Below are positions 42,018-62,188 of a stretch of 64,000 nt of DNA, piece after piece. The stretch is from Defluviicoccus sp. (GTDB lineage Bacteria > Pseudomonadota > Alphaproteobacteria > MPNO01), in contig JAPPIT010000034.1 in the NCBI GenBank assembly GCA_028820505.1, forward strand, positions 25,565 to 89,564, read 5' to 3'. A program made the translations under genes and the position numbers. The notes under the pieces are model-generated. The model worked only from the letters and a program-made list of their open reading frames with translations, was not told where the DNA came from and searched no databases. Each line of letters opens with the position of its first letter. The first letter of the stretch is position 1.

Positions 42018-43193
42018 CTATCCGGCCGCGATGACCTCGTTGCCCGACGGCACCACGACGATCCCGTCGGCCGGGTCCCGTAGTGTGCCCGGCGGATCCT
42101 CGCCGCGCTCCACCGCGTCGATCGCCTCGTTCAGCAGACGCCGGAACATGACGATGCCGCGGTCCGATGTCGCCAGGTGTTCCAGCGCGTGGCGTGCGAT
42201 CGGCCGCTGGCTGACCTGCGCCTCCCAGTCGTCGGGCGTGCGCTGGGTTTCCTCGTAGTCTCGGACGACTTCCCCGTCGGGAGGTTGAAAGATCCTCTTG
42301 CCGGGATCGATGCGTTCGACGTGGAACCCGATCGTGTGTTCGTTATCGACCGGCACCCACCAGCCCACCATGCGGGCGCGCTCGGTCTCGCCGTCGGGAT
42401 CGGTACCGGTCACGTCGGGCGGCGGAATGCACTTTGCCGTCGGCACGAAAATGGTGGAGGTGCGGATCAGCCTGTTGCCGCCTTCCAGATCGGTCGTCCG
42501 GATGTAGGAGACATGCCGGTCGGAACGAACGAAGTCGATGGCGGGCTTGATTCCCATCACGTCGTCGAAATCGAACACGCTCCGATTGGCACCGTGGAGG
42601 GTGTAGATGTGGATCGGGTCGGCGGCGTTCTCGTGAAGCTGCAGCCAGTTGCACGCGGCCACGGCGCCCCGACTGTAATTGCGGTAGGCGAGATACTCGG
42701 CCTCCTCGTCCTCCAGGATGTCGTAGCGCGGCAATAGCGGCTTTTTCTCCGGCGGCCCGAGATACGCGAAGACCAGCCCGCGGTATTCCTCCGCCGGGTA
42801 CCACGGCTGGCGCACCTCTTTCTTGTATGGGCTTTTGGCGGGCTCGCCCGGTTGGTCGAGGCATCGGCCTTCCGCGTCGTAGTACCAGCCGTGGTAACAG
42901 CAGCGTAGGCCCTGCTCTTCGATCCTGCCGTATTCGAGCGATGTCCCCCGGTGTATGCAGTGCGCCCCCAGCACGCCGACCCGGCCCGACTTGTCGCGAT
43001 AGGCGACCAGCTCCTCGTCGAGGATTCTGAGGTACTTGGGAAAGTCCGCGAGCTCCGACGACAGGCAGACTGGATGCCAGTAGCGCCGCATCAGCTCGCC
43101 CATCGGCGTTCCGGCCCCGACATGGGTGAGCCTGACGTTCTCATCGGGAACGATGGCGTTGCGTCCGTATCCGGACCCGTCGATAGCAGTCAT
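42018..43193 (-). CDS. Rieske non-heme-iron oxygenase alpha (KshA/phthalate-dioxygenase-like)
   Basis: CIHRG…CCYHGW Rieske motif; RRYWHP N-terminal motif; start MTAIDGS at 43193. The track ORF (580 aa) has 190 aa of GC-junk upstream that overlaps the cupin gene. Confidence 0.8.
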   Translation of the reverse strand: MTAIDGSGYGRNAIVPDENVRLTHVGAGTPMGELMRRYWHPVCLSSELADFPKYLRILDEELVAYRDKSGRVGVLGAHCIHRGTSLEYGRIEEQGLRCCYHGWYYDAEGRCLDQPGEPAKSPYKKEVRQPWYPAEEYRGLVFAYLGPPEKKPLLPRYDILEDEEAEYLAYRNYSRGAVAACNWLQLHENAADPIHIYTLHGANRSVFDFDDVMGIKPAIDFVRSDRHVSYIRTTDLEGGNRLIRTSTIFVPTAKCIPPPDVTGTDPDGETERARMVGWWVPVDNEHTIGFHVERIDPGKRIFQPPDGEVVRDYEETQRTPDDWEAQVSQRPIARHALEHLATSDRGIVMFRRLLNEAIDAVERGEDPPGTLRDPADGIVVVPSGNEVIAAG

Positions 43194-43222
43194 CGGTACA
43201 ATCTCGTGGAGCGATGGAGCAT

Positions 43223-43753
43223 TCAGACGGGATCGGCGTTGACCAGGACCGCGGCGAGCAGGCAGGGCTCGTCGGTCCGCACGCTCCATGAGTGGTTGGT
43301 GCCGCGCTGGACCATGACGTCGCCGACCCGGAGACATACTTCGCCGGTATCGAGGATCGCCCAGATCTCGCCCTTCAGGACGACCAGATAATCCACCGTC
43401 GAGGTCTTGTGCATCATCGGATCGCTGCTCGCGATATCCGCCGCGTGTCCGGCGCCGATCGAGTCGAAGGCGTCCCGGGCGTCGGCGCGGTCGCGCAACG
43501 CGCTGTCGGGCGGAAACTCGACGATGCGGAAGACGGTCCCGCCCGGCCCCGGTTCGAGCACGACCGGACCGTCGGCGGCGTCGGTGCGTCCCGAATTGTC
43601 GGCCGGGGCGCCGTCGGTGCGCCACAGCTCGGTCAGCGCCAGGCCCGGCATCGATTCCATCTCTTTGACCGTGCCGGCGTCGCCGTCGATGACGAATACC
43701 GACTTGCCCCGGTCGTCGTGCGCCGTGACCACGCGGCGGATTTTCTCGACCAA
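43223..43753 (-). CDS. cupin-domain protein
   Basis: 176 aa; C-terminal cupin barrel segment (…YLVVLKGEIWAILDTGEVCLRVGDVMVQRGTNHSW…). Confidence 0.6.
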   Translation of the reverse strand: MVEKIRRVVTAHDDRGKSVFVIDGDAGTVKEMESMPGLALTELWRTDGAPADNSGRTDAADGPVVLEPGPGGTVFRIVEFPPDSALRDRADARDAFDSIGAGHAADIASSDPMMHKTSTVDYLVVLKGEIWAILDTGEVCLRVGDVMVQRGTNHSWSVRTDEPCLLAAVLVNADPV

Positions 43754-43756
43754 TTC

Positions 43757-44755
43757 TCAAGCCTCCCTTATGAGCCGGTTGCGCAGGACGCCGATACCCT
43801 CGACCTCAAGCTCGATAACGTCGCCGTCGGACAGGTAGCGCTCGAGCTCAAGCCCGCAGCCGCCGCCCACCGTGCCCGAGCCGAAGAACTCGCCGGGGTG
43901 AAGGGTCTCGGATTGCGAGACATGGGCGACAAGGTCCTCGAACGTCCAGTGGATGCTCCCCGAATGCCCGCGCGACCATTCCTCCCCGTTGACGCGGGCG
44001 ATCATGGTGCAGTCATAGGGATCCATCTCGTCGGCGGTCACGATGCAGGGTCCGATGACGTTGCCGGTGTCGAAATCCTTGCCCTTGCCGGGTCCGAGCC
44101 CGCCCGGCATTTCGCGCGCCTGCGCATCGCGCGCCGAGAAATCGTTGAAGATGGAATAGCCGAAGATATGCGCGCGCGCGTCCCGTTTCGCGATATCCCT
44201 GCCGCCCGCGCCGATGAAGAAGCCGAACTCGAGCTCGTAATCCATCACGTCGGCATAGCCCGGCCACAGGACGTCTTCCTCGTGGCCCACCACCGCGAGA
44301 CGGTTGGCCTTGTAGTAGATCGGCTGGCGGTACCAGATCTCCGGGATCTCGAACATGCCCGGGGATCCGTCGCCGCGGGACTTCCTCAAGACCTCGAATG
44401 CGCGCTTGAGGTGTTCCTCGAAGCACAGGCAGTCGCGGATCTGGGGCGGTTCGGGGAGCGGCGTCCGGAGCGCGATCTCCTCCGCCGCCACCACCGCGTC
44501 GGCCCTCGGGCTCGCCGCCGCGAGGCGTGCCGCCGCCAGCGCCTCGTCGCCGGCGCGGATCAGCGCGAGCATCGAATCGAACGCCGGCCCGCCCGGGGAG
44601 ATGCCGAGATCGACGACCGCCTCGTCCCGGTCGATCAGGGCACCCACGCGATCCCGGTTGCCGGTCGCGCCGTGGCGGAACGTAACGAGTCTCACGGCGT
44701 CACCGGCGATGCATCCTCGATCGATCCCTGCGGGTCGGTCGGGAATGTTAGGCAT
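43757..44755 (-). CDS. fumarylacetoacetate hydrolase (FAH) family protein
   Basis: FAH-fold motifs (…EIPEIWYRQPIYYKAN…GHEEDVLWP…ELEFGFFIG…); start set at MPNIPD (ATG 44755). Confidence 0.8.
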   Translation of the reverse strand: MPNIPDRPAGIDRGCIAGDAVRLVTFRHGATGNRDRVGALIDRDEAVVDLGISPGGPAFDSMLALIRAGDEALAAARLAAASPRADAVVAAEEIALRTPLPEPPQIRDCLCFEEHLKRAFEVLRKSRGDGSPGMFEIPEIWYRQPIYYKANRLAVVGHEEDVLWPGYADVMDYELEFGFFIGAGGRDIAKRDARAHIFGYSIFNDFSARDAQAREMPGGLGPGKGKDFDTGNVIGPCIVTADEMDPYDCTMIARVNGEEWSRGHSGSIHWTFEDLVAHVSQSETLHPGEFFGSGTVGGGCGLELERYLSDGDVIELEVEGIGVLRNRLIREA

Positions 44756-44887: not shown

Positions 44888-46532
44888 AGTGTCGTCACGG
44901 GCAATGGAAGACCTGATCGCGCGCGCCGGACTCATGCGCGGGCTTCACACGGGTATGGGACTGGCCGCCAAGGGCATGGTGGTCGCCTTCGTGGTCTTCA
45001 CGGTGCTCAACGTCGAGTTCGCCAACAGCATCTACACGGCCATCCGCGGCTGGATCGAAGCCTCGCTCAGCTGGTACTACATCGTCGTCGTCATGGGGCT
45101 GGTGCTGTTCTGCCTCATCATGATGTTTTCGAGGTTCGGCTCCATCCGGCTGGGTGACGACGACTCGCGGCCGGAGTTCAGCAACTTCTCATGGTTCGCC
45201 ATGCTGTTCTCGGCCGGGGTCGGGATCGGCATCCTGTTCTTCGGGGTCGCCGAGCCGATCTTCTACTTCGACAACTCGGGCGCCTTCGGATACCCCAACA
45301 ACCCTCACGCCGACGTCGCCGGCGCGACGTCGATGGATCTCACCCGCGCGGTCCATGCGATGCGGGTCACCTATTTCCACTGGGGCTTCCACGGCTGGGC
45401 AGTCTATGTGGTGGTCGGCCTCTGCCTCGCCTATTTCGGCTTTCGCAAGAAGCTGCCGTTCACCATGCGCTCGGCGCTCTACCCGATCATCGGCGACAGG
45501 ATCTACGGTCCCATCGGGCACGCCGTCGACCTTCTCGCGGTGTTCGGCACGATCTTCGGCGTCGCGACCTCGCTGGGCCTCGGGGTCAACCAGATGGCGA
45601 CCGGGCTCAACGTGCTGTTCGGCGTCGATCCCGGCCTCACGACGCAGATCCTGCTGATCCTCGTCATCTCGATCGTGGCGACCTTTTCCGCGGTGTCGGG
45701 TGTCGGCAACGGCATCCGGATCATCTCCGAGTGGAACATCTGGCTGTCGCTCATCCTCCTCGCCTTCTTCCTGTTCGGCGGGCCGTTCAAGTGGCTGATG
45801 GGCTTCTTCGTCACCTCGCTCGGCGACTACATCTGGAACGTGATCCCGATGGGGTTCTGGACCGCCGGCACCGAGAAGGAGATCGCCTGGCAGGGCGGCT
45901 GGACGATCTTCTACTGGGGCTGGTGGATCTCATGGGCGCCCTTCGTCGGGCTGTTCATCGCGCGCATCAGCCGCGGCCGCACGATCCGCGAGTTCATGGT
46001 GGGCGTCATGTTCGTCCCCACCACGATCGCCTTCTTCTGGCTCTGCATGTTCGGCGGCAACGCGATCTACATGGAGCTCAACGCGGCCGGCGGCGTGGGC
46101 ACCGCCGGCGTCGTCGATCTGGTGAAGGCGTGGAACCTGCCGGCGGCGCTCTACGGCACCATCGAACGCCTGACCGACATCTCGACCCTGCAATGGATCA
46201 TGTCCGCGCTCGCGACCTTCCTGCTGGCGACGTGGTTCATCACCTCGTCCGATTCCGGGACGCTGGTGATCACCACGATGCTCTCGATGGGGAACGACGA
46301 CCCGCCGCAGCGCTTCCGCATCGTTTGGGGGCTGGGCGAGGGGTTCGTGGCCGCTGTGCTGCTGCTCGCGGGTGGGCTGAAGGCGCTTCAGACGGCGTCG
46401 ATCGCGGCGGCGCTGCCGATCTCGGTGATCATGATCTTCATGGCCTACGGGCTCTTGAAGTCGCTCTCGGAGGACAGCTCGGCGGTTGCCGCACCCGCTC
46501 CAGCGCAGGAACCGGAAGAAGCACCGGGCTAA
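44888..46532 (+). CDS. BCCT-family (betaine/carnitine/choline) transporter
   Basis: 12-TM protein with the BCCT signature region (…GWTIFYWGWWISWAPFVGLFIARISRGRTIREF…); GTG 44888 six nt after GGAGGAGAG (the ATG at 44904 is an alternative). Confidence 0.9.
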
Positions 46533-46545
46533 GGAGAGTCGCCGG

Positions 46546-47085
46546 TCACCGCGTATCGGCGTACTCGAGCGCGGCGTCCTCAAGCCAGTCTCGCGCGAAT
46601 TCCGCGTAGCTTCGGGGCACGGTGAGCTCGTAAAGCGGGTCGTTTCCCGGGCGGTGCAGCAGCACCGGGACCTTGGCGAGCAGGCTGCGCGCGCAGCAGC
46701 CCGCGCGGAACCTCTCGGGGTCGAGGTCGAGCGTCATCCCCTTGGCCAGCAGATCCCGTGCCCTGGGGCCGGTTAGCGACCATGTGACGCTGCCGGCTCC
46801 CGCGACAGCGATCGAGGCGTGGCGATCCGAAAGGGATTCCTCCAGCGCCCGCGCAACAGCGTGCTCCGCTTCGGCCGGGACTTCGATCAGCCAGGCGTCG
46901 GGGCCCAGCCACAGAATGACGGTATCGGCCCACGAGCGGCTCCTGTTGGGTGTCGGAGGCGGTTCCAGCCCGAGAGCGTTCGAGGCCGCTTCGACGAACG
47001 CTCCGTCGCCCGGGTCGCCGCGCAGTTCGATCCGGCCGCGCGGCGGGCAGACGCGGAACTCTACGCCGCGCGCGGGCTCAGCCAT
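46546..47085 (-). CDS. soxG: sarcosine oxidase gamma subunit
   Basis: 179 aa; position and size as the last gene of a soxBDAG operon; overlaps the soxA stop. Confidence 0.7.
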   Translation of the reverse strand: MAEPARGVEFRVCPPRGRIELRGDPGDGAFVEAASNALGLEPPPTPNRSRSWADTVILWLGPDAWLIEVPAEAEHAVARALEESLSDRHASIAVAGAGSVTWSLTGPRARDLLAKGMTLDLDPERFRAGCCARSLLAKVPVLLHRPGNDPLYELTVPRSYAEFARDWLEDAALEYADTR

Positions 47086-50008
47086 TCAGGCGCTCCCCTT
47101 CGGGGTCGTAGAACTTCGGATCGCAGATTTCCGCGCGAACGGTGCGGTCGTCGAGCGGCACGTGGACGGTGCCCGGCGCCCGGTCGCGCCCGCCTTTGAC
47201 CAGCGCCAGCGCGATGGAGCGCCCGAGCGTTGCGCTCCGGTAGCTCGACGTGACGTGGCCGATCATGGTCTCCGGCGCGCCCGACGGGGGTTCGGCGAGG
47301 ATTTGCGCGCCCTCCGGCAGCACCGTCGCCGGATCCTCGGTCCGAAGCCCGACCAACCGCTTGCGCATCGGGTCGCGCATTGCGCTGCGGGCGAGCGAGC
47401 GGCGGCCGATGAAGTCCTTCTTCTTGTTCAACATCCATCCCATGTCGAGATCGAGCGGCGTCACCGTGCCGTCGGTTTCCTGGCCGATCATCAGGTAGCC
47501 CTTTTCCGCGCGCAGCACATGCATCGCCTCGGTGCCGAACGGGGTCACCTCGTGCGTCATGAGCGCCGCCCAGAGATCCGTCGCGTCGCCGGCGGACACG
47601 ACGATCTCGTATGACACCTCGCCCGTATAGCTGATCCGGAACACGCGCGCCGGCAGCCCCGCCACGCGGCCCTCGCGCCAGGCCATGAAGGGGAAGACAT
47701 CGGGCGCCGGATCGATGTCGTCGGTCAGCGCTCCGAGAAGCTTCCTGGAGTCCGGTCCTGCCAGCGCCACGGTGGCGAACTGTTCGGTAAGCGACGTCAG
47801 GTAAACCTCCAGATCGGGCCATTCGGTCTGCAGCCACTCTTCCAGCCAGGCGAACACGCGCGCCGCGTTGCCGGTCGTGGTGGTCGTAAGGAACCGGTTC
47901 TCGGAGAGGCATGCCGTGACCCCGTCGTCGAGAACCATGCCGTCCTCACCGAGCATCAGCCCGTAGCGGCATCGCCCCGGCGCCAGCCCGTCCCAGGCAT
48001 TGGTGTAGACGCGGTTCAGGAACTCTCTCGCGTCCGGGCCGCAGACCAGTATCTTGCCGAGCGTGCTGGCATCCATGATGCCGGCGGCGTTACGCACGGC
48101 CAGGCATTCTCGCGCGACCGCTTCGTCCTTCGTCTCCCCCTCTTGCGGGTAGTAGAAGGGGCGCTTCCACTGGCCCACGTCCTCGAAAACGGCGCCGTTC
48201 TCCTCGTGCCACGCGTGCAGGGGCGTCCGGCGCACCGGGTCGGCCAGGGGACCTACGTCGCGGCCGGCGATGGCGCCGAAGGCGACCGGTTCGTAGGGTG
48301 GGCGGAAGGTGGTCGTGCCCACCTCCGGGATCGAGAGGCCGAGGGTCCCGGCGAGTATCGCGAGCCCGGGCACGTTTCCCGTCTTGCCCTGGTCGGTCCC
48401 CATGCCCAGCGTGGTGTATCGCTTGAGGTGCTCTACCGACTCGTAGCCCTCGCGCGCCGCGAGTTCGATATCGGCCGCGGTCACGTCGTTCTGGAAATCG
48501 ACGAACCGCCTTGCCTCGCCGGCCCGGCTTCGCGCGGGTACCGCCCACGAAACGGGCGCGGCGGGCTGTACCGGTCCTGGCGCCCCGGGCTCTCCCGCGC
48601 CGGCGGCGTGCCCCTCCGCGATGCAGGACGCCGTGTCGAACGCGCCGTTGGAAGCGCCGGCGCATCGTGCCGCTTGCGGGGAAACGTCGGGCAGGAACGC
48701 GCGGAGCGCCGCGTCGTAGCGCAATGTTCCTCCCGACTGGGAGAACAGGTGCACCGCAGGGCTCCAGCCTCCCGACATCGCGATCAGATCGCAGGGCAGT
48801 GCGCTGACGGTTCCGGCCAGCGACCCGTCGTCATTGAGCCGGGCGACGCGGGCGGCACGTACCCGGCGCCGCCCGGCGGTATCGATGACCGCATGGCCGC
48901 TCAGAATATTCAGCCCGGCTTCGCGTGCCTCCGCGCATTGCGTTCCGTCCCCGTCGGGCCGGAGATCGACGATCGCGGCGATCTCCACGCCGTGGCGGTG
49001 GAGATCGAGGGCCGCGGCGTAGGCGCTGTCGTTGTCGGTTACGACGACCGCGCGCCGGCCGGGAAGGACGGCGAAGCGGTTGACGTAGGCCCGGGCGGCG
49101 CCGGCCAGCATCGTTCCCGGCCGGTCGTTGTTGGCGAATACCAGCGGTCGCTCCAGCGCCCCCGTCGCCAGCACCACCCGGCCGGCGCGGATACGCCACA
49201 GGCGCTGGCGCGGCAGGTGCGCCGGCGCGGCGGGGCCCAGATGGTCGGTAACCCGTTCAAGCGCGATCAGGAAGTTGTGGTCGTAGTATCCGGTCACGAC
49301 GGTCCGGGTGAGGACGCGAACGTTGTCCATCGCCTCCAGCCCGGCCGTCGCCTCGCCGTGCCCGCCGGCATCGGCCGAGCCCAGCAGCATGCCGCCGGGC
49401 GGGCAGTCCTCATCGGCGAGGATCACCCGCGCGCCGCTCCGTCCCGCCGCCTCCGCCGCGGCGAGGCCGGCAGGCCCGGCGCCCACGACGAGCACGTCGC
49501 AATGCGCGTTCATGCGTTCGTAGCGGTCGGGGTCGGGGCCGTCCGGAGCGCGCCCCAGCCCTGCCATCCGGCGGATGAACGGTTCGTAGAGGTGCCAGCC
49601 GCGATGCGGCCACATGAACGTCTTGTAGTAGAACCCCGCCGGGATCAGCCGGTGCGCGAAGCCGTTGACCGCGGCCAGGTCGAACCACGGGCCGGGCCAG
49701 CAGTTCACGCTGCGGGCGGCGAGGCCCTCGTACAGCTCGACCCGGGTGGCCTTGAGATTGGGCAAGCCGCTCGCCCCGGAGCCGAGTTGCACGATCGCAT
49801 TGGGCTCCTCGGTGCCCGCCGACAGGATGCCGCGCGGCCTGTGGTACTTGAAGCTGCGCCCGACCAGATGCACGCCGTTCGCCAGCAGCGCGGAGGCCAG
49901 GGTATCCCCGGCGAATCCGGTGTATCGCCGCCCGTTGAAGGAAAAGCCGAGCGGCCGCGAGCGGTCGATGGCGCCGCCTTCGGGCAGGCGGTGCGGCTGT
50001 GCCGTCAT
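47078..50008 (-). CDS. soxA: sarcosine oxidase alpha subunit
   Basis: About 976 aa; N-terminal 2Fe-2S/NAD region, FAD dinucleotide fold (DVLVVGAGPAGLAAA), C-terminal GcvT-like aminomethyltransferase domain; ATG 50008 overlaps the soxD stop (ATGA). Confidence 0.9.
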   Translation of the reverse strand: MTAQPHRLPEGGAIDRSRPLGFSFNGRRYTGFAGDTLASALLANGVHLVGRSFKYHRPRGILSAGTEEPNAIVQLGSGASGLPNLKATRVELYEGLAARSVNCWPGPWFDLAAVNGFAHRLIPAGFYYKTFMWPHRGWHLYEPFIRRMAGLGRAPDGPDPDRYERMNAHCDVLVVGAGPAGLAAAEAAGRSGARVILADEDCPPGGMLLGSADAGGHGEATAGLEAMDNVRVLTRTVVTGYYDHNFLIALERVTDHLGPAAPAHLPRQRLWRIRAGRVVLATGALERPLVFANNDRPGTMLAGAARAYVNRFAVLPGRRAVVVTDNDSAYAAALDLHRHGVEIAAIVDLRPDGDGTQCAEAREAGLNILSGHAVIDTAGRRRVRAARVARLNDDGSLAGTVSALPCDLIAMSGGWSPAVHLFSQSGGTLRYDAALRAFLPDVSPQAARCAGASNGAFDTASCIAEGHAAGAGEPGAPGPVQPAAPVSWAVPARSRAGEARRFVDFQNDVTAADIELAAREGYESVEHLKRYTTLGMGTDQGKTGNVPGLAILAGTLGLSIPEVGTTTFRPPYEPVAFGAIAGRDVGPLADPVRRTPLHAWHEENGAVFEDVGQWKRPFYYPQEGETKDEAVARECLAVRNAAGIMDASTLGKILVCGPDAREFLNRVYTNAWDGLAPGRCRYGLMLGEDGMVLDDGVTACLSENRFLTTTTTGNAARVFAWLEEWLQTEWPDLEVYLTSLTEQFATVALAGPDSRKLLGALTDDIDPAPDVFPFMAWREGRVAGLPARVFRISYTGEVSYEIVVSAGDATDLWAALMTHEVTPFGTEAMHVLRAEKGYLMIGQETDGTVTPLDLDMGWMLNKKKDFIGRRSLARSAMRDPMRKRLVGLRTEDPATVLPEGAQILAEPPSGAPETMIGHVTSSYRSATLGRSIALALVKGGRDRAPGTVHVPLDDRTVRAEICDPKFYDPEGERLNG

Positions 50009-50286
50009 GGCGCGTCCTTCGGTGGCGGCTCGCCCATGCGATAGACCGAAAGGATGCGATGGGTGACGGTGTCGCGCTCGACGTTGAACCAGCGCCCGCA
50101 GCCATGGGTATGGCACCAGCGCTCGCGCTGGCTCCCCTTCGGGTTGGTCCGCATGAACAGGTAGTCGGCCCATTCCGCATCGTTCAGTGCGTCCGGATCG
50201 GGCGGACGCGCGATGTGCGCCTCGCCGCCGCAGGCGAACTCGCTCTCGTCCCGCTCTCCGCACCAGGGGCAGGGGATCAGCAGCAC
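50005..50286 (-). CDS. soxD: sarcosine oxidase delta subunit
   Basis: 93 aa with CPWCGERDESEF…WCHTHGCGRWF zinc-ribbon-like SoxD signature. Confidence 0.85.
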   Translation of the reverse strand: MLLIPCPWCGERDESEFACGGEAHIARPPDPDALNDAEWADYLFMRTNPKGSQRERWCHTHGCGRWFNVERDTVTHRILSVYRMGEPPPKDAP

Positions 50287-50293
50287 GGCCGCC

Positions 50294-51550
50294 TCAATGC
50301 GCCACCGCCGCAGCGCCGTGCTCGTCGATCAGCGCGCCGCTCGCGAACCGTTCGAGCGCGAAGGGCGCGTTCAGCGCGTGCGGCCGATCCTGGGCGATGG
50401 TGTGGGCGAACGCCCAGCCCGATCCCGGCGTCGCCTTGAACCCGCCGGTGCCCCAGCCGCAGTTGATGTAGAGCCCGTCTACCGGCGTCTTGCCGACGAT
50501 GGGGCTCGCATCCGGGCAAACATCGACGATGCCGCCCCACTGGCGCAGCATGCGGAGCCGCGAGAAGATCGGGAACAGCTCGACCAGCGCGCCCATCTGG
50601 CCTTCCACGATCTGGAAGCTGCCGCGCTGGGAATAGGAGTTGTAGCCGTCCATCCCGGCGCCGATCACCAGCTCGCCCTTGTCGGACTGGCTGACATAGA
50701 CGTGGACGGCGTTCGACATCACCACGCCGTGCAGGATCGGCTTGATCGGCTCCGAGACCATGGCCTGGAGAGTGTGGCTCTCGATCGGCAGCCGGAGGCC
50801 CGCCATCGCCGCGAGGACGCTCGAATGTCCTGCCGCGACCAGCCCGACCTTGTTCGCCGCGATCCTGCCCCGCGACGTCCGGAGGCCCGTCACCCGGCCG
50901 CCCGACACGTCGATCCCGGTCACCTCGCAGTTCTGGACGATGTCCACGCCCCGCGCGTCCGCGGCCCGGGCGAAGCCCCAGGCGACCGCATCGTGCCGGG
51001 CGATGCCGCCCCGCCTCTGTATCGATGCGCCGAGGATGGGGTACCGCACGTCCGGCGAGGTATTGACGATCGGCACTTCGGCCTTGACCCCCGCCGGGTC
51101 GAGGACCTCCGAATCGATGCCGTTCAGGCGGATCGCCCGGACCCTGCGGGAAAGCTCCTTCAGATCGTGCTCGTTGTGGGCCAGGTTCAGGACGCCGCGC
51201 TGGCTCAGCATGATGTTGAAGTTGAGCTCGCGGCTCAGGCCCTCGTATAGCTTGAGCGACTTCTCGTAGAGATGCGCGCTCTCGTCCCACAGATAGTTGG
51301 ACCGGATGATCGTGGTGTTGCGCCCGGTGTTCCCGCCGCCCAGCCAGCCCTTTTCGAGGACGGCGATGCTGCCAGCATCGTGCTCCCTGGCCAGGTAGTA
51401 GGCCGTCGCCAGCCCGTGCCCGCCGCCGCCGACGATGACGACATCGTACGAGGGCTGTGGCTCCGGGCTGCGCCACGCCCGCGACCAGCTCCTGTGATAG
51501 CCGAGCGCGTTGCGGGCAAGGCTGAATATCGAATAGCGCGGCGAGGTCAC
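50294..51550 (-). CDS. soxB: sarcosine oxidase beta subunit
   Basis: 418 aa; FAD fold ([19 protein letters not shown]) and DAO-family sequence; first gene of soxBDAG. Confidence 0.9.
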
Positions 51551-55568: not shown

Positions 55569-55571
55569 CGT

Positions 55572-56477
55572 TCAACCCGCGGCGAGATCCCGCTGGTCGG
55601 CCGCGTTGTAGTTGGCGTCGTACCACCAGGCGAGGTGGTCGCCGTAGACGACCGGCGGCCAGCGCGGCGGATTGTCCGGGCCGGCGCAGGTCGGGGCGCA
55701 ACGGATCTCGGCGTCGAGATTGGGACCGAAGAAGTACGGGATCGCGTAGCGGCGGCGCCCGACCGGCGGCAGCGCGCGGTGCGGGGTCGATCTGTAGCGC
55801 CCGTTGGTCCAGCGGTGCAGCATGTCGCCGGTGTTGACGACGAAGGAGTCCTCGACGAAGGGCACATCCTCCCACTCGTCCCCTTCGCCCCGGATCTGCA
55901 ATCCCGGCACGCCCGACTGCGCGAGGAAAGTCAGGAAATTGACGTCCGTGTGGGGCGCGATGACGTAACGCCCCGGTTTGCGTTCGGCGGGCGGGTAGTG
56001 CGAAAGCCGGAACGAGAACTGGCTTCGCGTGAAATAGGGCGCGAACCAGTCCTCCGGCAGGCCGAGAGACAGCGAGAGCGCCGGCAGGACGCTCACCGCC
56101 AGCCGGTCCACCGCCTCGCAATATTCGAGCAGCGTTTCGCGGAAGCCCGGCAGATCCTCCGGCCAGCGGTTGGGGCCCGCGAAGCGACGCCCGGCGAGCG
56201 GGTCGTCGGGACCGCGCTCGCGCTTGACGAAGAACGCCTCGTTCATGTCCGGCAGCGCGTCTTCGCTGACCCGCGAGGTGCGCACGTTGTAGCGCGCCAT
56301 CGCCATGTAGCCGTTATTGTGCTCGTTCATCAGCAGCGCGTGCTTTGCCGCCGCCGGCTGGGCGTGGAACCGCTCCGCTTCCGCGAAAGTCCTCCGGACG
56401 AGCTCCTGCGGCACGCCGTGGTTCACCACGATGAAAAAGCCGACATGCTCCAGCGCGTCCGCGAGCGCGCCCGCCAC
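55572..56477 (-). CDS. 2-oxoglutarate/Fe(II)-dependent oxygenase (isopenicillin-N-synthase-like family); N-terminus probably extends to about 56530
   Basis: HTD…(N)…H facial-triad pattern (APHTDVNF…TPHRA); the protein-like in-frame sequence …NPLIDLSRSRSEV continues upstream of the GTG at 56477 but contains no ATG/GTG/TTG. Confidence 0.75.
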   Translation of the reverse strand: MAGALADALEHVGFFIVVNHGVPQELVRRTFAEAERFHAQPAAAKHALLMNEHNNGYMAMARYNVRTSRVSEDALPDMNEAFFVKRERGPDDPLAGRRFAGPNRWPEDLPGFRETLLEYCEAVDRLAVSVLPALSLSLGLPEDWFAPYFTRSQFSFRLSHYPPAERKPGRYVIAPHTDVNFLTFLAQSGVPGLQIRGEGDEWEDVPFVEDSFVVNTGDMLHRWTNGRYRSTPHRALPPVGRRRYAIPYFFGPNLDAEIRCAPTCAGPDNPPRWPPVVYGDHLAWWYDANYNAADQRDLAAG

Positions 56478-56671: not shown

Positions 56672-57622
56672 ATGACCGTGCCCAGTCCCCGGCGCCTGAC
56701 CCACGCCAACCTGTTCGTCGCCGACATGGAACGCTCGATGGATTTCTACATGTCGGTGATCGGGCTCGACGAGTCCTACCGGCGGGTCAATCTCAGGGCC
56801 GGCTTCCTGACCAACGGCAATTCGCATCACGACATCGGGGTGATGGAGTACGGCCGGGTCTATGCCGGGAAGCGCGAGGGGACGGGGAAGATCGGCCTCA
56901 ACCATCTCGCCTTCGAGATGGAAAACGACCTCGATCTCAACCGGTGGTACGAGGCGGCGGTGGCGATGGGCGCCCACATCCACCGTACCGTCGATCACGG
57001 CAATACCCATTCCTGCTACATGCACGACCCCGACGGCATCCAGATCGAGGTCTATTGCGACACCGTCAAGGAATGGTGGCACCTCAAGACCGGCACGATG
57101 ACGACGCCGCTCGACGACTGGACGCCCGGGGAGGGCGAGCACTCGACCGAGCCGATGTACCTGGAGGACCCGGAAATCGGCCGCATGGAGGAGGCCCTGC
57201 TGCATCCGGTCAAGACGACCCATGCGGTCCTGATCGCCGACGATTTCGAGGCGTGCTTCGACTTCTATACAGCGATCGTCGGTCTTTCGCCGCTTTCGGG
57301 CGGGCGGGACGGAGAGTTCTGCGTGCTCGCCGGGCGGCTCGGCGCGCCGAGCCTCGCGCTGTTCCGGGCGAACGCGGGTCGCGCGCCCGGCTTCCACCAC
57401 GTCGCGCTCTCGGCCTGGAGCGTGGACGACCTGAAGGCGTCGCGCGCCGCGCTCGCCGACGCCGGCATCGAGGTCGAGGCCGAGACCGACCATCCGTCCC
57501 GCTACGCGCTCTGCGTGACCGATCCCGACGGGTTCCGCGTCCAGCTCTACGCCGACCGCCCCGGCGGTCCCGGGATCGATTGGGTCGCCGAGGACCCGGA
57601 GACGCTGCTCTATCTGGTTTGA
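56672..57622 (+). CDS. two-domain VOC-family protein (type I extradiol-dioxygenase / glyoxalase-like)
   Basis: Two βαβββ modules (LTHANLFVADMERSMDFYMSVIGL and THAVLIADDFEACFDFYTAIVGL); ATG 56672 preceded by GGGAGAGG. Confidence 0.75.
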   Translation: MTVPSPRRLTHANLFVADMERSMDFYMSVIGLDESYRRVNLRAGFLTNGNSHHDIGVMEYGRVYAGKREGTGKIGLNHLAFEMENDLDLNRWYEAAVAMGAHIHRTVDHGNTHSCYMHDPDGIQIEVYCDTVKEWWHLKTGTMTTPLDDWTPGEGEHSTEPMYLEDPEIGRMEEALLHPVKTTHAVLIADDFEACFDFYTAIVGLSPLSGGRDGEFCVLAGRLGAPSLALFRANAGRAPGFHHVALSAWSVDDLKASRAALADAGIEVEAETDHPSRYALCVTDPDGFRVQLYADRPGGPGIDWVAEDPETLLYLV

Positions 57623-59187
57623 GATGCGCCCCGGTCGGTCGACCCGTAGCCGCCTCCCCCCGGAGTCTCGATCGCGAATTCCGTTCCCGGTTCCAGGAGG
57701 AAACTCTGCTTTGCGTCGATCGTCTCGCCATCGAGGCTGAGCCGCGTCGGGCCGCCGTCCTCCCCGCCGCACATTCCGCGGGGTGGGAAGCGGGATCTTT
57801 CGAACATCGTGGAGACCGTTGCCGGCTTGCCGCTGCGGAGCCTGAGCCCGATTCTCTGCCCCGCACCGCCGCGAAACCTGCCCGCGCCGGAGGATTCGGG
57901 GATCAGCGTCCGGCTCGTGAAGAGCACCGGTACGACCTGTTCCATCACCTCGACCGGCGCGTTGGCCACGTTGCTTGGAAAAGCTGTTGCGTCGAGCCCG
58001 TTCTTGTCGGCCCGCGCGCCCATCCCGCCTGAGCAGAAGAAGGTAAAGACATAGGGTGCGCCGTCATCCCCCTCGCCGGCGAGGGTGACAGCGCCCAGCA
58101 CCGAGCTCTCCGCCAGGATTCGGTCCGGGATCACCGGCGCCAGCGCATCGAAGATCGCGAAAGGGACGAAAAGTCCTACCAGGTGACGCCCGCCGACCGG
58201 GGCGGGATGACGCGCGTTGAGGATGGAGCCCTCGGGAGCGCGGACCCGGATCGGGCGCAACGTGCCGTCGTTGTTCGGGATATCGGGGCTCAGCGCGCAT
58301 TTCAGCGCGTAGAACACGAACGCCTTGGTGTAGTTGAGGACGCAGTTGACCCCCTTGTCGATCTGCGCCGAAGTGCCCGCGAAATCGACTTCGATCTCAT
58401 CGTCCGCGACGGTAATCACGACGGCGACGATCAGGGGCTCGCCGAAGCCGTCGAGCATGACGCTTCCGCGCCATGTGCCGTCGGGGAGCGCGGCGATGGC
58501 GTGGCGCATCTTCCGTTCCGTCCGGGCGGTGATTTCGTCCGCGATCCCGGCGAGGTCGACAAGACCCTCCAGATCCATGAAGGCGCGCATCCGTTCGCTT
58601 GCCACCTGGTTCGCCGAGACCTGCGCCGCCAGGTCGCCGAGCACCAGCTCCGGAGACCGCACGTTGTCTTCGATGATGCTGAACAGCGTGTCGTTGGGCG
58701 CCCCGCCGTCGAACAGGCGCAGGATCGGGATCTGCAACCCCTCTTCGTAGACCGCTTCCGCCGCCGCCGAGAAAATCCGGCCGCCGATGTCGACGGTGTG
58801 GCAGTTGCTCGCCGTGAATCCGACGAGGTCGTCGCCGCGATGGACCGGGGTAACGACGGTGATGTCGTGCTTGTGTCCCGAGACCAGCCACGGGTCGTTG
58901 GTGATGAACACGTCGCCCGGCCGGAAGCCCACCGGCCCCACCGCGTCGATGATGTGATCCATGCCGATGCTGAGTGTGCCGAGATGCCCGGGCGCGCCCT
59001 GCACGGACTGGGCCAGCATGACCCCCCGGGCATCGAACACCGCGGCCGACAGGTCCTCCATCTCGCCCAGGACGGTGGAAAAGGCGCTGTTGACCATAGT
59101 CGCCGCCTGTTCGCTGGCGATCGAGACCAGACGGTTCCAGCAGATCTCGATCTTCACCGGGTCGATGGTTCCCTTACACCCCGCCAT
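57610..59187 (-). CDS. hyuB: hydantoinase B / 5-oxoprolinase family protein (N-methylhydantoinase B-like)
   Basis: HyuB-family sequence; start MAGCKGT (ATG 59187) overlapping the hyuA stop by 14 nt. Confidence 0.85.
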   Translation of the reverse strand: MAGCKGTIDPVKIEICWNRLVSIASEQAATMVNSAFSTVLGEMEDLSAAVFDARGVMLAQSVQGAPGHLGTLSIGMDHIIDAVGPVGFRPGDVFITNDPWLVSGHKHDITVVTPVHRGDDLVGFTASNCHTVDIGGRIFSAAAEAVYEEGLQIPILRLFDGGAPNDTLFSIIEDNVRSPELVLGDLAAQVSANQVASERMRAFMDLEGLVDLAGIADEITARTERKMRHAIAALPDGTWRGSVMLDGFGEPLIVAVVITVADDEIEVDFAGTSAQIDKGVNCVLNYTKAFVFYALKCALSPDIPNNDGTLRPIRVRAPEGSILNARHPAPVGGRHLVGLFVPFAIFDALAPVIPDRILAESSVLGAVTLAGEGDDGAPYVFTFFCSGGMGARADKNGLDATAFPSNVANAPVEVMEQVVPVLFTSRTLIPESSGAGRFRGGAGQRIGLRLRSGKPATVSTMFERSRFPPRGMCGGEDGGPTRLSLDGETIDAKQSFLLEPGTEFAIETPGGGGYGSTDRGASQTR

Positions 59188-61312
59188 GACCGCCTCCGCC
59201 GAGTTCGACGACCAGATTACCGCGTTCGTCCGAAGTCGCGACCGAGCCCTGCCCCACCACGACAGTGGTGTAGGTATCCTCGAGGATCGCCGGGCCGTCG
59301 ATCCGGCTGCCCGGGGGAATGCCGTCGCGCCGGCAGACCCGTGCTTCGCAAGGCGCGTCCCACCCCTCCAGCCAGACAGTGCGCGCGCGCACCGTCGCTT
59401 CATCCGCGACTGTCCCGGCAAGCGAGAGGGAGTCGACGACGGGCGCCCCCTCCGCGGAGAGGCGCAACGTCCGGACCTCTACCTCGTGTCCGGCATGTAT
59501 GCGCCGATAGACGCGTTCGTATTCCGCCTCGAAGGCGTGCCCGACCTCGCCTGCCCGGTCCGCCGTCAGATTGCCGTCCGGCAGCCGGACGGTCAGCTCC
59601 TTGCGCTGTCCCAGGTAGCGCATTTCGGCGATCCGGCCGAACGCGATCTCGGACGATGGCACCCCGGCGCGCTCAAGGATCGCGGTCGCGTCCTCCTCCA
59701 TGTCCCGGAAAGCGCCTTCGACGGCCTTCCAGTCGATCGCGTCGACGGTCCCGATCCACGTGCGCGACAGGCGATAGGCGCGGGGCGCGAGCAGCAATCC
59801 CAGCGCCGAGCCGACACCGGCCGAACCCGGCACGACGAAGCGTGCGATGCCGAGCCGGCGAGCAACGCCCTCCGCATGGACCGGGCCGGCACCGCCGAAA
59901 GCGACCAGCACCAGGCCCGCCGGATCGAAGCCGCGCTCGACGACGTGAACGCGGGCCGCGTTCGCCATCGCCTCGTCGACCACCGCGTGAATGCCGAGCG
60001 CGGCCGTTTCGATCGACAGCCCCAGGGGCTCGGCGACGCAATCGCGGATCGCGGCGCGCGCCCTCTCCTCGTCCAGCGCCATGGCGCCGCCGAGAAACGA
60101 GTCCGATGCGAGATAGCCGAGGACGAGGTCGGCGTCGGTGACGGTGGGCAGGACTCCGCCGCGCCCGTAGCAGGCCGGACCCGGGTCGGCGCCAGCGCTC
60201 TCCGGGCCCACCTTGAGCAGGCCCAGATCGTCGACGCGCGCGATCGAGCCGCCGCCCGCGCCGATCTCGATCATGTCGACCACCGGCATGCGGAGCGGCA
60301 GTCCGCTGCCCTTCTTGAAACGATGGTGGCGGGCGACCTCGAACTCGGTTGTCACGACTGGCGTGCCATCTTCGATGAGGCAGGTCTTGGCGGTCGTCCC
60401 GCCCATGTCGAAGGAGAGTATGCGGGACAGTGCGAGGGCGCGGCCCGCCTTGCCCGCCATGACGGCCCCGGCCGCCGGTCCCGACTCGCAGAGTCTGACG
60501 GGGAACTTCCGCGCGATATCGGGGGTGGTAATCCCGCCGCTGGACAGCATCACGAAGAGCTGGGCCGGAACCCCTTCCTCCAGCCGCGCGAGGTAACGGT
60601 CGACCAGAGGCAATACGTAAGCGTTGGCGACGGTGCTGGAGGCGCGCTCGTATTCCCGCATCTCGGGCAGGAGATCCGACGACAGCGAGAACGCGACCCC
60701 CGGCAGGCGCGCGGCGAGGAAGTCGCCGAAGCGCCGCTCGTGAAGCGGGTTGGCGTAGGAGTGGAGCAGGCATACCGCGACCGTCTGCGCGCCGCTTCGG
60801 GCGATCGCCTCGATCGCCGCCTGCGCCGCCGTTTCGTCGAGCGGTTGGACGACAGAGCCGTCGGCCGCGATCCGTTCCGCGAGTTCGTAACATGCGCCTT
60901 GCCCGGCCAGCGGCACCGCCTTTTCCATGCCGAGATCGTAGATGTCGTATTTCTTCTCGCGCGCGATCTCCAGGAGATCGGCAAAACCCCTTGTCGCCAC
61001 AAGCGCGGTTCTGGCGCCCTTGCGCTCGATCAGCGCGTTCGAAACCAGCGTCGTCGCGTGCAGGACGATCGCCAGATCGTCGATCGCTGCGCCGGCTTCC
61101 CCGCACGCCGCCTGCACCGCCTCGATGGCACCGCGCGCCGGGTCTTCGGGCGTGGTCAGCGACTTGAAACGATGCACCCGCGCCGTCGCCGTATCGACCA
61201 TGTAGACGTCGGAGAAGGTGCCGCCGATGTCGAGCCCGGCGATCCAGCGCGCCGTGACGGGGTGCGCCGGCCCTGCCGGCTTTTCCCGAGCGTTCGTCTT
61301 TCGCGTAGCCAT
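59174..61312 (-). CDS. hyuA: hydantoinase A / 5-oxoprolinase family protein (N-methylhydantoinase A-like, ATP-dependent)
   Basis: N-terminal ASKHA fold (IAGLDIGGTFSDVYMV); 712 aa. The 1022-aa track ORF continues antisense through the creatininase gene. Confidence 0.85.
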   Translation of the reverse strand: MATRKTNAREKPAGPAHPVTARWIAGLDIGGTFSDVYMVDTATARVHRFKSLTTPEDPARGAIEAVQAACGEAGAAIDDLAIVLHATTLVSNALIERKGARTALVATRGFADLLEIAREKKYDIYDLGMEKAVPLAGQGACYELAERIAADGSVVQPLDETAAQAAIEAIARSGAQTVAVCLLHSYANPLHERRFGDFLAARLPGVAFSLSSDLLPEMREYERASSTVANAYVLPLVDRYLARLEEGVPAQLFVMLSSGGITTPDIARKFPVRLCESGPAAGAVMAGKAGRALALSRILSFDMGGTTAKTCLIEDGTPVVTTEFEVARHHRFKKGSGLPLRMPVVDMIEIGAGGGSIARVDDLGLLKVGPESAGADPGPACYGRGGVLPTVTDADLVLGYLASDSFLGGAMALDEERARAAIRDCVAEPLGLSIETAALGIHAVVDEAMANAARVHVVERGFDPAGLVLVAFGGAGPVHAEGVARRLGIARFVVPGSAGVGSALGLLLAPRAYRLSRTWIGTVDAIDWKAVEGAFRDMEEDATAILERAGVPSSEIAFGRIAEMRYLGQRKELTVRLPDGNLTADRAGEVGHAFEAEYERVYRRIHAGHEVEVRTLRLSAEGAPVVDSLSLAGTVADEATVRARTVWLEGWDAPCEARVCRRDGIPPGSRIDGPAILEDTYTTVVVGQGSVATSDERGNLVVELGGGGHGGV

Positions 61313-61417
61313 CGGCTGACCCGTTCGCGTCGACCGGCCCGCCTCCCGGTGTGGCCGGACGCGCGGGCCGCCACTATTCTCGCGGAAGAGACGCTGACCG
61401 GGTAGGGAGCCCTCGAC

Positions 61418-62188
61418 ATGGCAGAGACCGACAAACCGATCGTCTACGACGAGCTTTCCTGGATGGCGGCCCGGGACCTGGTCGAGGGCGGTATGGATAT
61501 GGCGATCATGCCGACCGGCGCGACCGAGCAGCACGGTCCGCATTTGCCGATGAACGTCGACTATCTGGTGGCCTACCGGATCGCGCTGGGTGTCTCCGAA
61601 CGCACCGGGGTTCCGGTTCTGCCGCCGCTGCCGGTCGGTCATTCCGGCGGTCATGACGGGATTCCGGGGACGGTGTCGCTGAGCCCGGAGACTTTCCAGA
61701 AGGTGGTCGAAGAGATCGCCGGGGGCCTCTATGCCACCGGCTTCCGGCGGCTTCTTTTCCTCAACGGGCACCTGCCCAACATCCACCCGCTGAACTGTGC
61801 GGCGGTCAACCTCAGGGTGCGCCATCCGGACTTCAAGATTCAGGCGCTGAGCTGGTGGGATATCACGCCCGAGATCCAGAAAAAGTTCTACGGCGACGAG
61901 AGCTTCGGCATCCCGCACGGCAATATCGTCGAGACCTCGATCATGCGTTACTTCCGCGACGACCTCGTCGACATGGCCAAGGCGAAAAAGGTCGGCGGCA
62001 GGGGGAAGAAGCTGTTCTTCTATTACCTCCTGCGCCAGGTCTCGCTCTCCGGGCACGGCGGCGACCCGAGCGAAGCCACGGTCGAGCTCGGCGAGGAACT
62101 CTACCGGATGGCCGTCGACGGGCTGGCGCCGCAGATCGAAAAGGCCCTTACCGAAGAGCCGCCGGAACTGGCCGACGGCTTGCTCTAG
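61418..62188 (+). CDS. creatininase (creatinine amidohydrolase) family protein
   Basis: 256 aa; metal-binding hallmark IMPTGATEQHGPHLP…; divergent from hyuAB. Confidence 0.85.
   Translation: MAETDKPIVYDELSWMAARDLVEGGMDMAIMPTGATEQHGPHLPMNVDYLVAYRIALGVSERTGVPVLPPLPVGHSGGHDGIPGTVSLSPETFQKVVEEIAGGLYATGFRRLLFLNGHLPNIHPLNCAAVNLRVRHPDFKIQALSWWDITPEIQKKFYGDESFGIPHGNIVETSIMRYFRDDLVDMAKAKKVGGRGKKLFFYYLLRQVSLSGHGGDPSEATVELGEELYRMAVDGLAPQIEKALTEEPPELADGLL

Follow-up and report, generated by a model that had tools for sequence, protein, structure and literature searches.

A Probable Mosaic of Catabolic Modules around a Sarcosine Oxidase Operon in an Uncultured Defluviicoccus Genome

Overview of the Catabolic Interval

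We analyzed a stretch of 64,000 nucleotides (the window) from the metagenome-assembled genome (MAG) of an uncultured member of the Rhodospirillales, labelled Defluviicoccus sp. by NCBI (GenBank assembly GCA_028820505.1, contig JAPPIT010000034.1, positions 25,565 to 89,564 of the forward strand). The interval between positions 42018 and 62188, which carries genes for a sarcosine oxidase (soxBDAG), a BCCT-family transporter, HyuAB, a creatininase-family protein and Rieske oxygenases, is probably a mosaic catabolic island composed of several breakdown modules and not of one pathway. At least seven transcription units can be told apart in it, and these are shuffled among close relatives. A preliminary description of this DNA had presented the interval as a supercluster for the catabolism of N-methyl compounds; if true, an uncultured bacterium of the symbiont type would have offered a compact route from creatinine to glycine as well as novel demethylases for N-methyl compounds or quaternary amines. 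What was found points instead to a catabolically versatile alphaproteobacterium with many terminal oxygenases in shuffled modules, powered by unlinked electron carriers.

The G+C content of the window is about 67%, so raw lists of open reading frames (ORFs) are noisy. Genes were therefore called by third-position GC and cross-checked with independent gene calls and Pfam on contigs carrying identical proteins. The locus is present on at least six public contigs, including one of 2.16 Mb and GCA_028819635.1. A literature search for the source accessions gave nothing on the habitat; sample names such as "ROBB21" hint at a possible association with sponges. Every gene named in the preliminary description was recovered in its place by this procedure. 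Genes for a cupin-like protein, an FAH-family protein, a two-domain VOC protein, an OYE flavoprotein and an acyl-CoA ligase, which lie in or beside the interval, were absent from that description. The genes are as follows (Rieske genes are referred to below by their first coordinate).

40888-42012, + strand: OYE-family FMN oxidoreductase (Pfam Oxidored_FMN 1.9e-65)
42018-43193, - strand: Rieske alpha subunit, phthalate-dioxygenase-like, 391 aa (Pfam Rieske 4.5e-17; faint LigXa_C)
43223-43753, - strand: cupin-like protein, 176 aa (Pfam Cupin_2 1.4e-4, below the family cut-off; no NCBIfam match)
43757-44755, - strand: FAH-family protein, about 332 aa, start uncertain (Pfam FAA_hydrolase 3.7e-51; no NCBIfam equivalog reached)
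44889-46532, + strand: BCCT-family transporter, 547 aa (Pfam BCCT 1.3e-174)
46546-47085, - strand: soxG (NCBIfam 94, below the cut-off of 144)
47078-50008, - strand: soxA (NCBIfam 1401, cut-off 1164; folate-binding GCV_T domain)
50005-50286, - strand: soxD (NCBIfam 129, cut-off 116.5)
50294-51550, - strand: soxB (NCBIfam 702, cut-off 529)
51610-52614, - strand: MDR-superfamily NAD(P)H oxidoreductase (Pfam ADH_N and ADH_zinc_N)
52740-53807, + strand: Rieske monooxygenase, DdmC/VanA-like, 355 aa (Pfam Rieske and VanA_C 5.6e-42)
53862-55568, + strand: GGT-family Ntn hydrolase, 568 aa (Pfam G_glu_transpept 1.1e-102)
55572-56477, - strand: Fe(II)/2-oxoglutarate (2OG) oxygenase, 301 aa (Pfam DIOX_N and 2OG-FeII_Oxy)
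56672-57622, + strand: two-domain VOC protein, predicted extradiol ring-cleavage dioxygenase, 316 aa (Pfam Glyoxalase, two stretches)
57610-59187, - strand: hyuB (Pfam Hydantoinase_B)
59174-61312, - strand: hyuA (Pfam Hydant_A_N, Hydantoinase_A and Hydant_A_C)
61418-62188, + strand: creatininase-family metal amidohydrolase, 256 aa (Pfam Creatininase 5.4e-61)
62233-63852, + strand: acyl/aryl-CoA ligase, start approximate (Pfam AMP-binding 2.2e-66)

Gene Order in Related Genomes

Synteny was studied in about 170 related loci overall. Eighty loci, kept of 593 confirmed relatives, were anchored on the 52740 protein (alignment A1) in GTDB species genomes, another 80 were anchored on the GGT-family protein (alignment A2) in JGI metagenomes, and seven further contexts were inspected individually. 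Across this material, the 20-kb arrangement was kept only partly, and only in relatives of at least 83% amino-acid identity. The supposed supercluster is thus a lineage-specific mosaic.

In locus L007 of a sister MAG, where the Rieske protein is 94% identical, the sox operon, the MDR gene, the Rieske-GGT pair and the 2OG, VOC and creatininase-family genes are retained, and hyuAB, the BCCT gene, the FAH operon and the CoA ligase gene are missing. Two ORFs of this locus presumably encode IS4/Tn5-like transposases, as judged by translation: one between soxB and the MDR gene (7402-8856), and a fragment (1205-2152) about 50 bp beyond the sox-homologous block. Locus L170 has an MDR gene (84%) divergent from a Rieske (88%)-GGT (84%)-second Rieske-molybdenum (Mo) hydroxylase large, medium and small subunit-VOC (87%) series, which converges with hyuB (91%)-hyuA (89%). 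It is devoid of sox, 2OG and creatininase-family genes, and its Mo hydroxylase, 30-45% identical to that of the window, is a different paralogue. In locus L087, the GGT gene (83%) converges with a single operon composed of creatininase-family (94%), YCII, 2OG (87%), glutathione S-transferase (GST) and luciferase-like genes, and Rieske, sox and hyu genes are lacking.

Outside these relatives the associations were not found. Neither GGT nor sox genes stood beside the 52740 homologue in any of the 78 more distant Rieske loci (36-61% identity), and the GGT gene was absent beside homologues of 70% and 62% identity. A homologue of the 52740 Rieske gene or of the creatininase-family gene was found near the GGT gene in none of the 80 GGT loci (52-77% identity). 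Beyond L007, no conserved partners were detected across the 80 GTDB Rieske-anchored loci or across the 80 metagenome GGT-anchored loci. The GGT-family protein itself is conserved to an unusual degree: in other assemblies, contigs of 1.9 to 8 Mb carry homologues of 73-84% identity in unrelated contexts. One cluster at 79% bears the NCBI label of a Gammaproteobacteria MAG, and in two loci (among L169, L171 and L157) the GGT homologue is divergent from a PhaC-like gene. What recurs, in close relatives only, is a set of small units: the MDR gene divergent from Rieske-GGT, VOC with hyuBA, VOC with the creatininase-family gene, and 2OG-creatininase-GGT.

One rearrangement concerns hyuBA, which forms a clean 3.8-kb presence/absence difference between the window (57623-61429) and L007 (14884-14921). 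Its site corresponds to the 26-nt gap between the VOC and creatininase-family genes of L007, and hyuBA lies there in the opposite orientation. Only short matches at chance level were found when repeats flanking the indel were sought. In L007, the VOC stop codon is followed by 26 nt containing GGGAGG and then by the creatininase start codon; owing to this short gap, the creatininase-family gene is there the operon partner of a ring-cleavage-type enzyme. In both the window and L170, hyuBA is convergent with the VOC gene.

No riboswitches, other RNAs or tRNAs that might serve as regulatory or integration clues were found. A megablast search of plasmids with the 20-kb interval gave scattered similarity in sox and BCCT (71-78%) and no syntenic plasmid record. 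With tblastn, the creatininase-family protein had no plasmid match at 1e-20 and the best plasmid match to HyuA was 46% identical, so cultured-plasmid contexts are uninformative here.

Sarcosine Oxidase and BCCT Transporter

The preliminary description had reported a complete soxBDAG operon, and the gene set bears this out. The genes follow the order B-D-A-G, with neighbours overlapping or at most 8 bp apart. SoxB, SoxD and SoxA exceed the cut-offs of their curated families and SoxG stays under its own. SoxB aligns with the crystallised sarcosine oxidase 1VRQ_B over 394 residues without gaps (65% identity, E = 5e-177). By homology, soxBDAG is thereby shown to encode a bona fide heterotetrameric enzyme of the sarcosine oxidase family. 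Since the NCBIfam models for Sox describe subfamilies under the name "family protein", sarcosine is the presumed substrate.

The neighbouring BCCT protein passed the generic NCBIfam bcct model (481, cut-off 408) and missed the glycine-betaine equivalog (541, cut-off 650). Given the Sox subunit scores, the SoxB identity and the BCCT scores, homology lends good support to the oxidation of sarcosine derived from imported betaine-type compounds, and soxBDAG with the BCCT gene makes a credible N-methyl module for sarcosine or betaine-derived compounds. In such a module, imported betaine- or creatine-type compounds would be converted to sarcosine and further to glycine and methylene-tetrahydrofolate. 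In L007, from which the BCCT gene is missing, it does not adjoin sox.

Rieske Oxygenases

A six-frame motif scan of the window found exactly four Rieske CxH..CxxH sites in coding frames. Two belong to the 42018 and 52740 genes listed above and the others to the following genes, the second of which, established by gene call and Pfam, had been counted but left unnamed in the preliminary description.

3272-4450, - strand: Rieske oxygenase with Ring_hydroxyl_A, 392 aa (Pfam)
17642-18826, - strand: CarAa-like Rieske dioxygenase

The DxxHx(3-5)H iron motif is kept in all four proteins (as DxxHx4H in 42018), and all four look catalytically intact from their sequences. No beta-subunit genes were called in the window; the four enzymes are alpha-only. 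At NCBI, each has only the product name "Rieske 2Fe-2S domain-containing protein", and their affinities were judged by the nearest PDB structure and by scores against curated models (NCBIfam).

The 52740 protein aligned over its full length to DdmC (PDB search, 1.2e-55), which together with the VanA_C domain and the intact metal motifs agrees with its earlier designation as VanA-like. For the 42018 protein, previously called KshA- or phthalate dioxygenase (PDO)-like, the best PDB matches were 7fhr, a putative phthalate 4,5-dioxygenase (1e-49), and 7fjl (2e-43); KshA reached just 4e-13. The 17642 protein matched CarAa structures at 1e-108 over its full length.

The 3272 protein had been described as GbcA/CntA-like. 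CntA (3e-41) and Stc2 (2e-34) are indeed its top PDB matches, limited to residues 35-225, but the GbcA model gave a score of 152 against a cut-off of 670. In CntA, the iron ligands His208 and His213 are accompanied by a bridging Glu205 and by Tyr203, which makes a pi-cation contact with the quaternary nitrogen, and the Cys206/Cys209 pair is common to CntA and Stc2 (PMC7948474; PMC10952381). A Cys-x-x-Cys pair beside the iron ligands is known in some members of group V only. The 3272 protein reads E212-N-L-L-D-V-Y-H219-A-A-T-L-H224; when the alignment is anchored on H219/H224, the positions of CntA Y203, E205, C206 and C209 are occupied by L214, D216, V217 and A220. Judged by these residues, the protein is devoid of the quaternary-amine signature. 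Its gene is the first of an operon with the TRAP transporter genes dctM, dctP and dctQ, and this co-transcription suggests a carboxylate substrate.

Of the four enzymes, three had been assigned to demethylase-associated groups. By sequence affinity, this holds for one, the DdmC/VanA-like 52740 protein, and the family in question acts on aromatic methyl ethers. The CarAa-like 17642 and the PDO-like 42018 proteins, two of the four, have contexts that are clearly aromatic, and the 3272 protein, with the CntA signature residues replaced, stays unassigned. The label of quaternary-amine or N-methyl demethylases is unsupported by these affinities to CarAa, PDO and DdmC.

Electron Carriers

Neither a plant-type or adrenodoxin-type 2Fe-2S ferredoxin nor a 4Fe-4S CxxCxxCxxxCP motif was found in plausible coding frames by the six-frame scan of the window, and no FAD_binding_6, NAD_binding_1 or Fer2 reductase was called across the 64 kb. 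When 15 VanB-type reductases from loci of 52740 homologues were compared with the window by tblastn, no match was obtained (best E = 0.01). Of the 80 kept loci, 15 have a VanB-type reductase gene adjoining the 52740 homologue; identity is 51% or less in each of these, and none belongs to the closer relatives. Two domains were considered as Rieske partners and rejected: the Fer2 domain at 9622-10089, which is the small subunit of a Mo hydroxylase, and a Fer2_4 domain, which is an integral part of SoxA.

Motif scan, gene calls and tblastn thus agree with the preliminary description that none of the four oxygenases has an adjacent ferredoxin or reductase, and its proposal of shared trans-acting carriers is reasonable. 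We infer that electrons reach the oxygenases from a reductase or ferredoxin whose gene lies in another part of the genome. An unlinked reductase is a well-documented and common arrangement; in sphingomonads, seven oxygenase sets are served by a single ferredoxin/reductase set (PMC4048848). Locus L170 contains three Rieske oxygenase genes within 8 kb (3616-11823), and there, too, a reductase is lacking. Clusters rich in Rieske genes and poor in reductases appear to be typical of the lineage of the window.

MDR, GGT-Family, 2OG and VOC Proteins

The sox operon starts directly downstream of the MDR gene, whose product had been taken for a Zn-dependent alcohol dehydrogenase. The gene is where it had been reported, but no GHE motif occurs in the protein, its Cys residues number only four, and among NCBIfam models it comes closest to the PIG3 quinone oxidoreductase family (164, cut-off 297). 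Its sequence marks it as a zinc-free, quinone-oxidoreductase-like protein. In the window, L007 and L170 alike, the MDR gene and the Rieske-GGT pair are transcribed divergently; in L170 no sox genes follow the MDR gene.

The GGT gene starts 54 bp downstream of the 52740 gene. Its product begins with MAMQPPIHATNHMVASGHH and has no signal peptide, in line with the cytoplasmic location proposed before; its NCBIfam score of 265 is below the equivalog cut-off of 358. The catalytic Thr377 of the DTSY motif is invariant in alignment A2. The 2OG oxygenase had its best PDB match with 9ovh (5e-50).

The VOC family is rare: in a search of 5.8 billion proteins, 72 were found at E <= 1e-10. An AlphaFold2 model built from a 54-sequence alignment had a pLDDT of 93, and its top Foldseek matches were XylE, LapB, BphC, AphC and homoprotocatechuate dioxygenase (E 1e-17 to 1e-14, TM 0.66). 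The invariant residues H11, N13, H53, H78, H109, Y116 and E126 are all located in the N-terminal domain. The best alignment of this domain was with the C-terminal, catalytic domain of 9wgj_A, in which H-x-N, H and E matched in register. We take their spacing to resemble that of His155/Asn157/His200/His214/His248/Tyr257/Glu267 of homoprotocatechuate dioxygenase. The two-domain fold, the conserved 2-His-1-Glu set and the His/Tyr second sphere are those of type I extradiol enzymes. According to the model, the protein would be a ring-cleaving dioxygenase with its active site in the N-terminal and not, as usual, in the C-terminal domain.

HyuAB and the Creatininase-Family Protein

As reported before, hyuA (- strand) is divergent from the creatininase-family gene (+ strand). 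The HyuA and HyuB proteins matched the Pfam Hydantoinase_A/Hydantoinase_B pair at 7e-84 and 1e-150, a placement at the superfamily level only, and their best NCBIfam models were caprolactamase CapA (482) and CapB (185), with a cut-off of 1000. The creatininase-family protein scored 132 bits with TIGR04448 (cut-off 235), and PDB creatininases matched it at about 7e-27 over residues 6-189 only. The CoA ligase encoded downstream was closest to the benzoate-CoA ligase family of NCBIfam (301, cut-off 375).

No creatinine deaminase (CodA-type), isochorismatase-type N-carbamoylsarcosine amidase or creatinase was found among the called genes of the window; the first two had likewise not been evident in the preliminary description. 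Two Amidohydro_1 genes (24-30 kb) matched guanine-deaminase, TRZ-ATZ and HutF-type models far below cut-off, and no cytosine-deaminase model. Degradation of creatinine needs either a creatinine (cytosine) deaminase, two N-methylhydantoinase subunits and an N-carbamoylsarcosine-cleaving enzyme, or creatininase with creatinase (PMC6742649). The proposed conversion of creatinine via N-methylhydantoin and N-carbamoylsarcosine to sarcosine therefore loses its footing: the creatininase-family score is 132 of the 235 required, HyuAB is nearest to caprolactamase, two steps have no candidate gene in the window, and L007 has no hyuAB at this site.

Creatinine catabolism may be overcalled by annotation pipelines and metagenome surveys that take KEGG orthologues for "creatininase" and "N-methylhydantoinase" as a sign of it, since such proteins can be below curated thresholds and travel with aromatic-cleavage genes.

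FAH-Cupin Operon and Other Genes of the Window

The 42018 Rieske gene is the last of an FAH-cupin-Rieske operon, in which the FAH and cupin genes are separated by 3 bp, and it is convergent with the OYE gene. Cupin homologues are located about 1-6 kb from Rieske genes in L008, L017 and the Pseudomonas loci L056-L064. The best NCBIfam match of the OYE protein was the C-terminal half of salicylyl-CoA 5-hydroxylase/oxidoreductase (404, cut-off 1078).

The remaining genes of interest lie to the left of the interval, starting with a NicX-like gene at the left edge of the window.

4788-6995: DMFA2_C (N,N-dimethylformamidase-like) protein, 735 aa, divergent from the Rieske-dctMPQ operon (no NCBIfam match)
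7299-10943: three-subunit Mo hydroxylase (best curated match 4-hydroxybenzoyl-CoA reductase/XdhA, below cut-off)
16544-19674, - strand: car-like operon, with a meta-cleavage product (MCP) hydrolase gene (18838-19674), the CarAa-like gene (17642-18826), a LigA-like gene (17364-17645) and a LigB-like gene (16544-17371)

In the car-like operon, the full-length similarity to CarAa goes along with LigAB-type and MCP hydrolase neighbours, an operon composition of the CarAa type. The MCP hydrolase is nearest to HsaD and BphD (269 and 249 bits). Gene calls and the motif scan found neither a CarAc ferredoxin nor a CarAd reductase in this operon. The Mo hydroxylase reached no equivalog (562 with the 4-hydroxybenzoyl-CoA reductase model, cut-off 995). 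Positions 1-10943 possibly form a pyridine or N-heterocycle module.

Three further regions were noted. At 11364-16535 (+ strand), genes of an ABC transporter (substrate-binding protein, fused double permease and an ATPase with TOBE_2) enclose a split TPP enzyme, whose TPP_enzyme_N (171 aa) and TPP_enzyme_C (195 aa) parts are encoded by separate genes; we assume that the pair resembles sulfopyruvate or phosphonopyruvate decarboxylase pairs. The product of 36875-37816 (+ strand) passed the 4-hydroxyproline epimerase equivalog (463, cut-off 450) and is among the few window proteins that reached one. Between the catabolic modules, at 31386-36665 (- strand), there are genes for a 536-aa protein with DUF924 and HATPase_c_2, for a product of 299 aa that matched nothing in Pfam, and for a PP2C phosphatase; together, these may form a partner-switching regulatory set.

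Interpretation and Alternatives

In the mosaic that we consider probable, the BCCT-soxBDAG module stands next to a block at 51.6-63.9 kb, which may serve to oxidise a substituted aromatic or an N-heterocyclic compound. There, the DdmC/VanA-like Rieske enzyme would hydroxylate or O-/N-demethylate the substrate, the VOC enzyme would cleave the ring of the resulting diol, and the GGT-like, creatininase-like and HyuAB proteins would open amide or lactam bonds. The FAH-cupin-PDO-like Rieske operon beside the OYE gene would provide hydroxylation of an aromatic acid and subsequent processing of the ring-fission product. The aromatic character is indicated by the extradiol fold and 2-His-1-Glu set of the VOC protein, by the Rieske matches to DdmC, PDO and CarAa, and by the position of the CarAa-like gene beside those for the MCP hydrolase and LigAB.

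Several points weigh against this view. The recurring pairs are limited to relatives of at least 83% identity, and shared ancestry, not selection, could explain them. Two genomes, those of the window and of L007, have sox beside the Rieske-GGT block, and in the distant locus L157 the GGT gene is directly followed by soxB-soxD; because of these three cases, a functional link to sarcosine oxidase is possible. Some enzymes of the DdmC/VanA family N-demethylate in certain systems. The activity of the VOC protein is predicted from its modelled fold and its conserved residues, and the sarcosine oxidase module is the only one to which homology assigns a likely substrate.

The integrated N-methyl supercluster, in which creatinine would pass through HyuAB to sarcosine and SoxBDAG while the Rieske enzymes demethylate betaines imported by BCCT, draws on the presence of BCCT, genuine soxBDAG and HyuAB- and creatininase-family genes within 17 kb, and on CntA and Stc2 as first PDB matches of the 3272 protein. 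Metagenome surveys of sponge microbiomes give the same enzyme families as a creatinine route (PMC6742649). We nevertheless regard it as unlikely. The scores of the creatininase-family protein (132, cut-off 235) and of HyuAB, nearest to caprolactamase and far under the cut-off, are too low, and no gene of the window was called as a creatinine deaminase, an N-carbamoylsarcosine amidase or a creatinase. The hyuAB genes are an indel relative to L007 and in L170 travel with VOC, Mo-hydroxylase and Rieske genes in a locus devoid of sox. Lastly, the Rieske affinities are to CarAa, PDO and DdmC, and the 3272 protein (GbcA 152, cut-off 670) is without the Tyr, Glu and Cys pair of CntA. A wider alternative sees in the whole window a single toolkit directed at N-heteroaromatic alkaloids, for example methylated pyridine carboxylates or purines. 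Hydroxylation and demethylation would be done by the Mo hydroxylase and Rieske enzymes and ring cleavage by NicX and VOC; the formamidase-, GGT- and creatininase-like proteins and HyuAB would open amides and lactams, and Sox would dispose of an N-methylglycine fragment. The window does contain a Mo hydroxylase, a formamidase-like protein, a NicX-like gene and two deaminase-type amidohydrolases, and in L170 the genes of the other Mo hydroxylase paralogue lie in one operon between the Rieske-GGT pair and VOC. However, the modules are 40 kb apart with unrelated genes between them (PP2C, DUF924 kinase-like, 4-hydroxyproline epimerase), and the Mo hydroxylase matches no equivalog (4-hydroxybenzoyl-CoA reductase, 562 with a cut-off of 995), which makes this toolkit a doubtful proposition as well.

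Far less plausible still is the salvage of gamma-glutamyl compounds or glutathione, in which GGT would free the gamma-glutamyl group and HyuAB would serve as a 5-oxoprolinase of the OplAB type. 5-Oxoprolinases are known in the HyuA/B family, membership of the GGT family is clear, and in L087 the GGT homologue stands beside GST and M20/M28 peptidase genes. Against this, the GGT-family protein is a cytoplasmic one whose score does not reach the GGT equivalog, L007 and L087 keep GGT and have no hyuAB, and among the 80 more distant GGT loci hyuAB was within 10 kb in one.

Within the favoured mosaic, a more specific and rather speculative idea is that the set recurring in several Defluviicoccus-like MAGs (MDR divergent from DdmC-like Rieske-GGT, with VOC, HyuAB, creatininase-like and 2OG genes) encodes an undescribed pathway for methoxylated or N-heterocyclic aromatic amides. 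After ring cleavage, the Ntn hydrolase, the creatininase-type enzyme and the ATP-dependent enzyme would open amide or lactam bonds in place of the usual alpha/beta-hydrolase, and where sox adjoins, an N-methylglycine fragment would go to sarcosine oxidase. All families involved are known, and the arrangement is that of an ordinary "scattered oxygenase" catabolic island. The residual interest lies in the uncharacterised Rieske-GGT/VOC/HyuAB/creatininase-like set and in the unusual VOC dioxygenase. Substrate discovery has three defined, testable targets here: the DdmC-like Rieske enzyme, the VOC dioxygenase of the rare family and the cytoplasmic hydrolase of the GGT family.

Comparison with Known Systems

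The sarcosine oxidase module resembles SoxBDAG of Corynebacterium sp. U-96 (PDB 1VRQ/1X31; also 2GAG) in its B-D-A-G order, in the ungapped 65% identity of SoxB and in the GCV_T domain of SoxA, and differs from it in SoxG, which is below the family cut-off (94, cut-off 144). The 52740 protein shares the Rieske and VanA_C architecture and the intact metal motifs with DdmC and VanA, which are three- and two-component Rieske monooxygenases, respectively. Unlike these, it is encoded next to a GGT-family hydrolase and an MDR reductase, with no VanB-type reductase or ferredoxin in the window. The 3272 protein is, like CntA, Stc2 and GbcA of group V, an alpha subunit with Rieske and Ring_hydroxyl_A domains and no beta gene; its match to them is partial, no CntB/GbcB reductase gene adjoins it, and a TRAP transporter is co-transcribed.

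The car operon of carbazole 1,9a-dioxygenase is composed of CarAa, CarBaBb and CarC. In the window, the 17642 protein corresponds to CarAa and is flanked by an MCP hydrolase and LigA/LigB-type extradiol subunits, whereas CarAc and CarAd genes are lacking and the gene order starts with the hydrolase. Creatinine degradation via N-methylhydantoin (PMC6742649) has its counterpart in the HyuA/HyuB- and creatininase-family genes and the sarcosine oxidase found within 16 kb, but two of the four steps are without a candidate gene, the creatininase and Hyu proteins are below cut-offs, and hyuAB is dispensable in L007. The closest parallel in organization is with the aromatic-catabolic clusters of sphingomonads (PMC4048848), where catabolic genes are likewise interspersed with terminal oxygenases that have no ferredoxin or reductase of their own beside them; the four enzymes of the window differ in being alpha-only, and their proposed shared carrier would lie outside the window.

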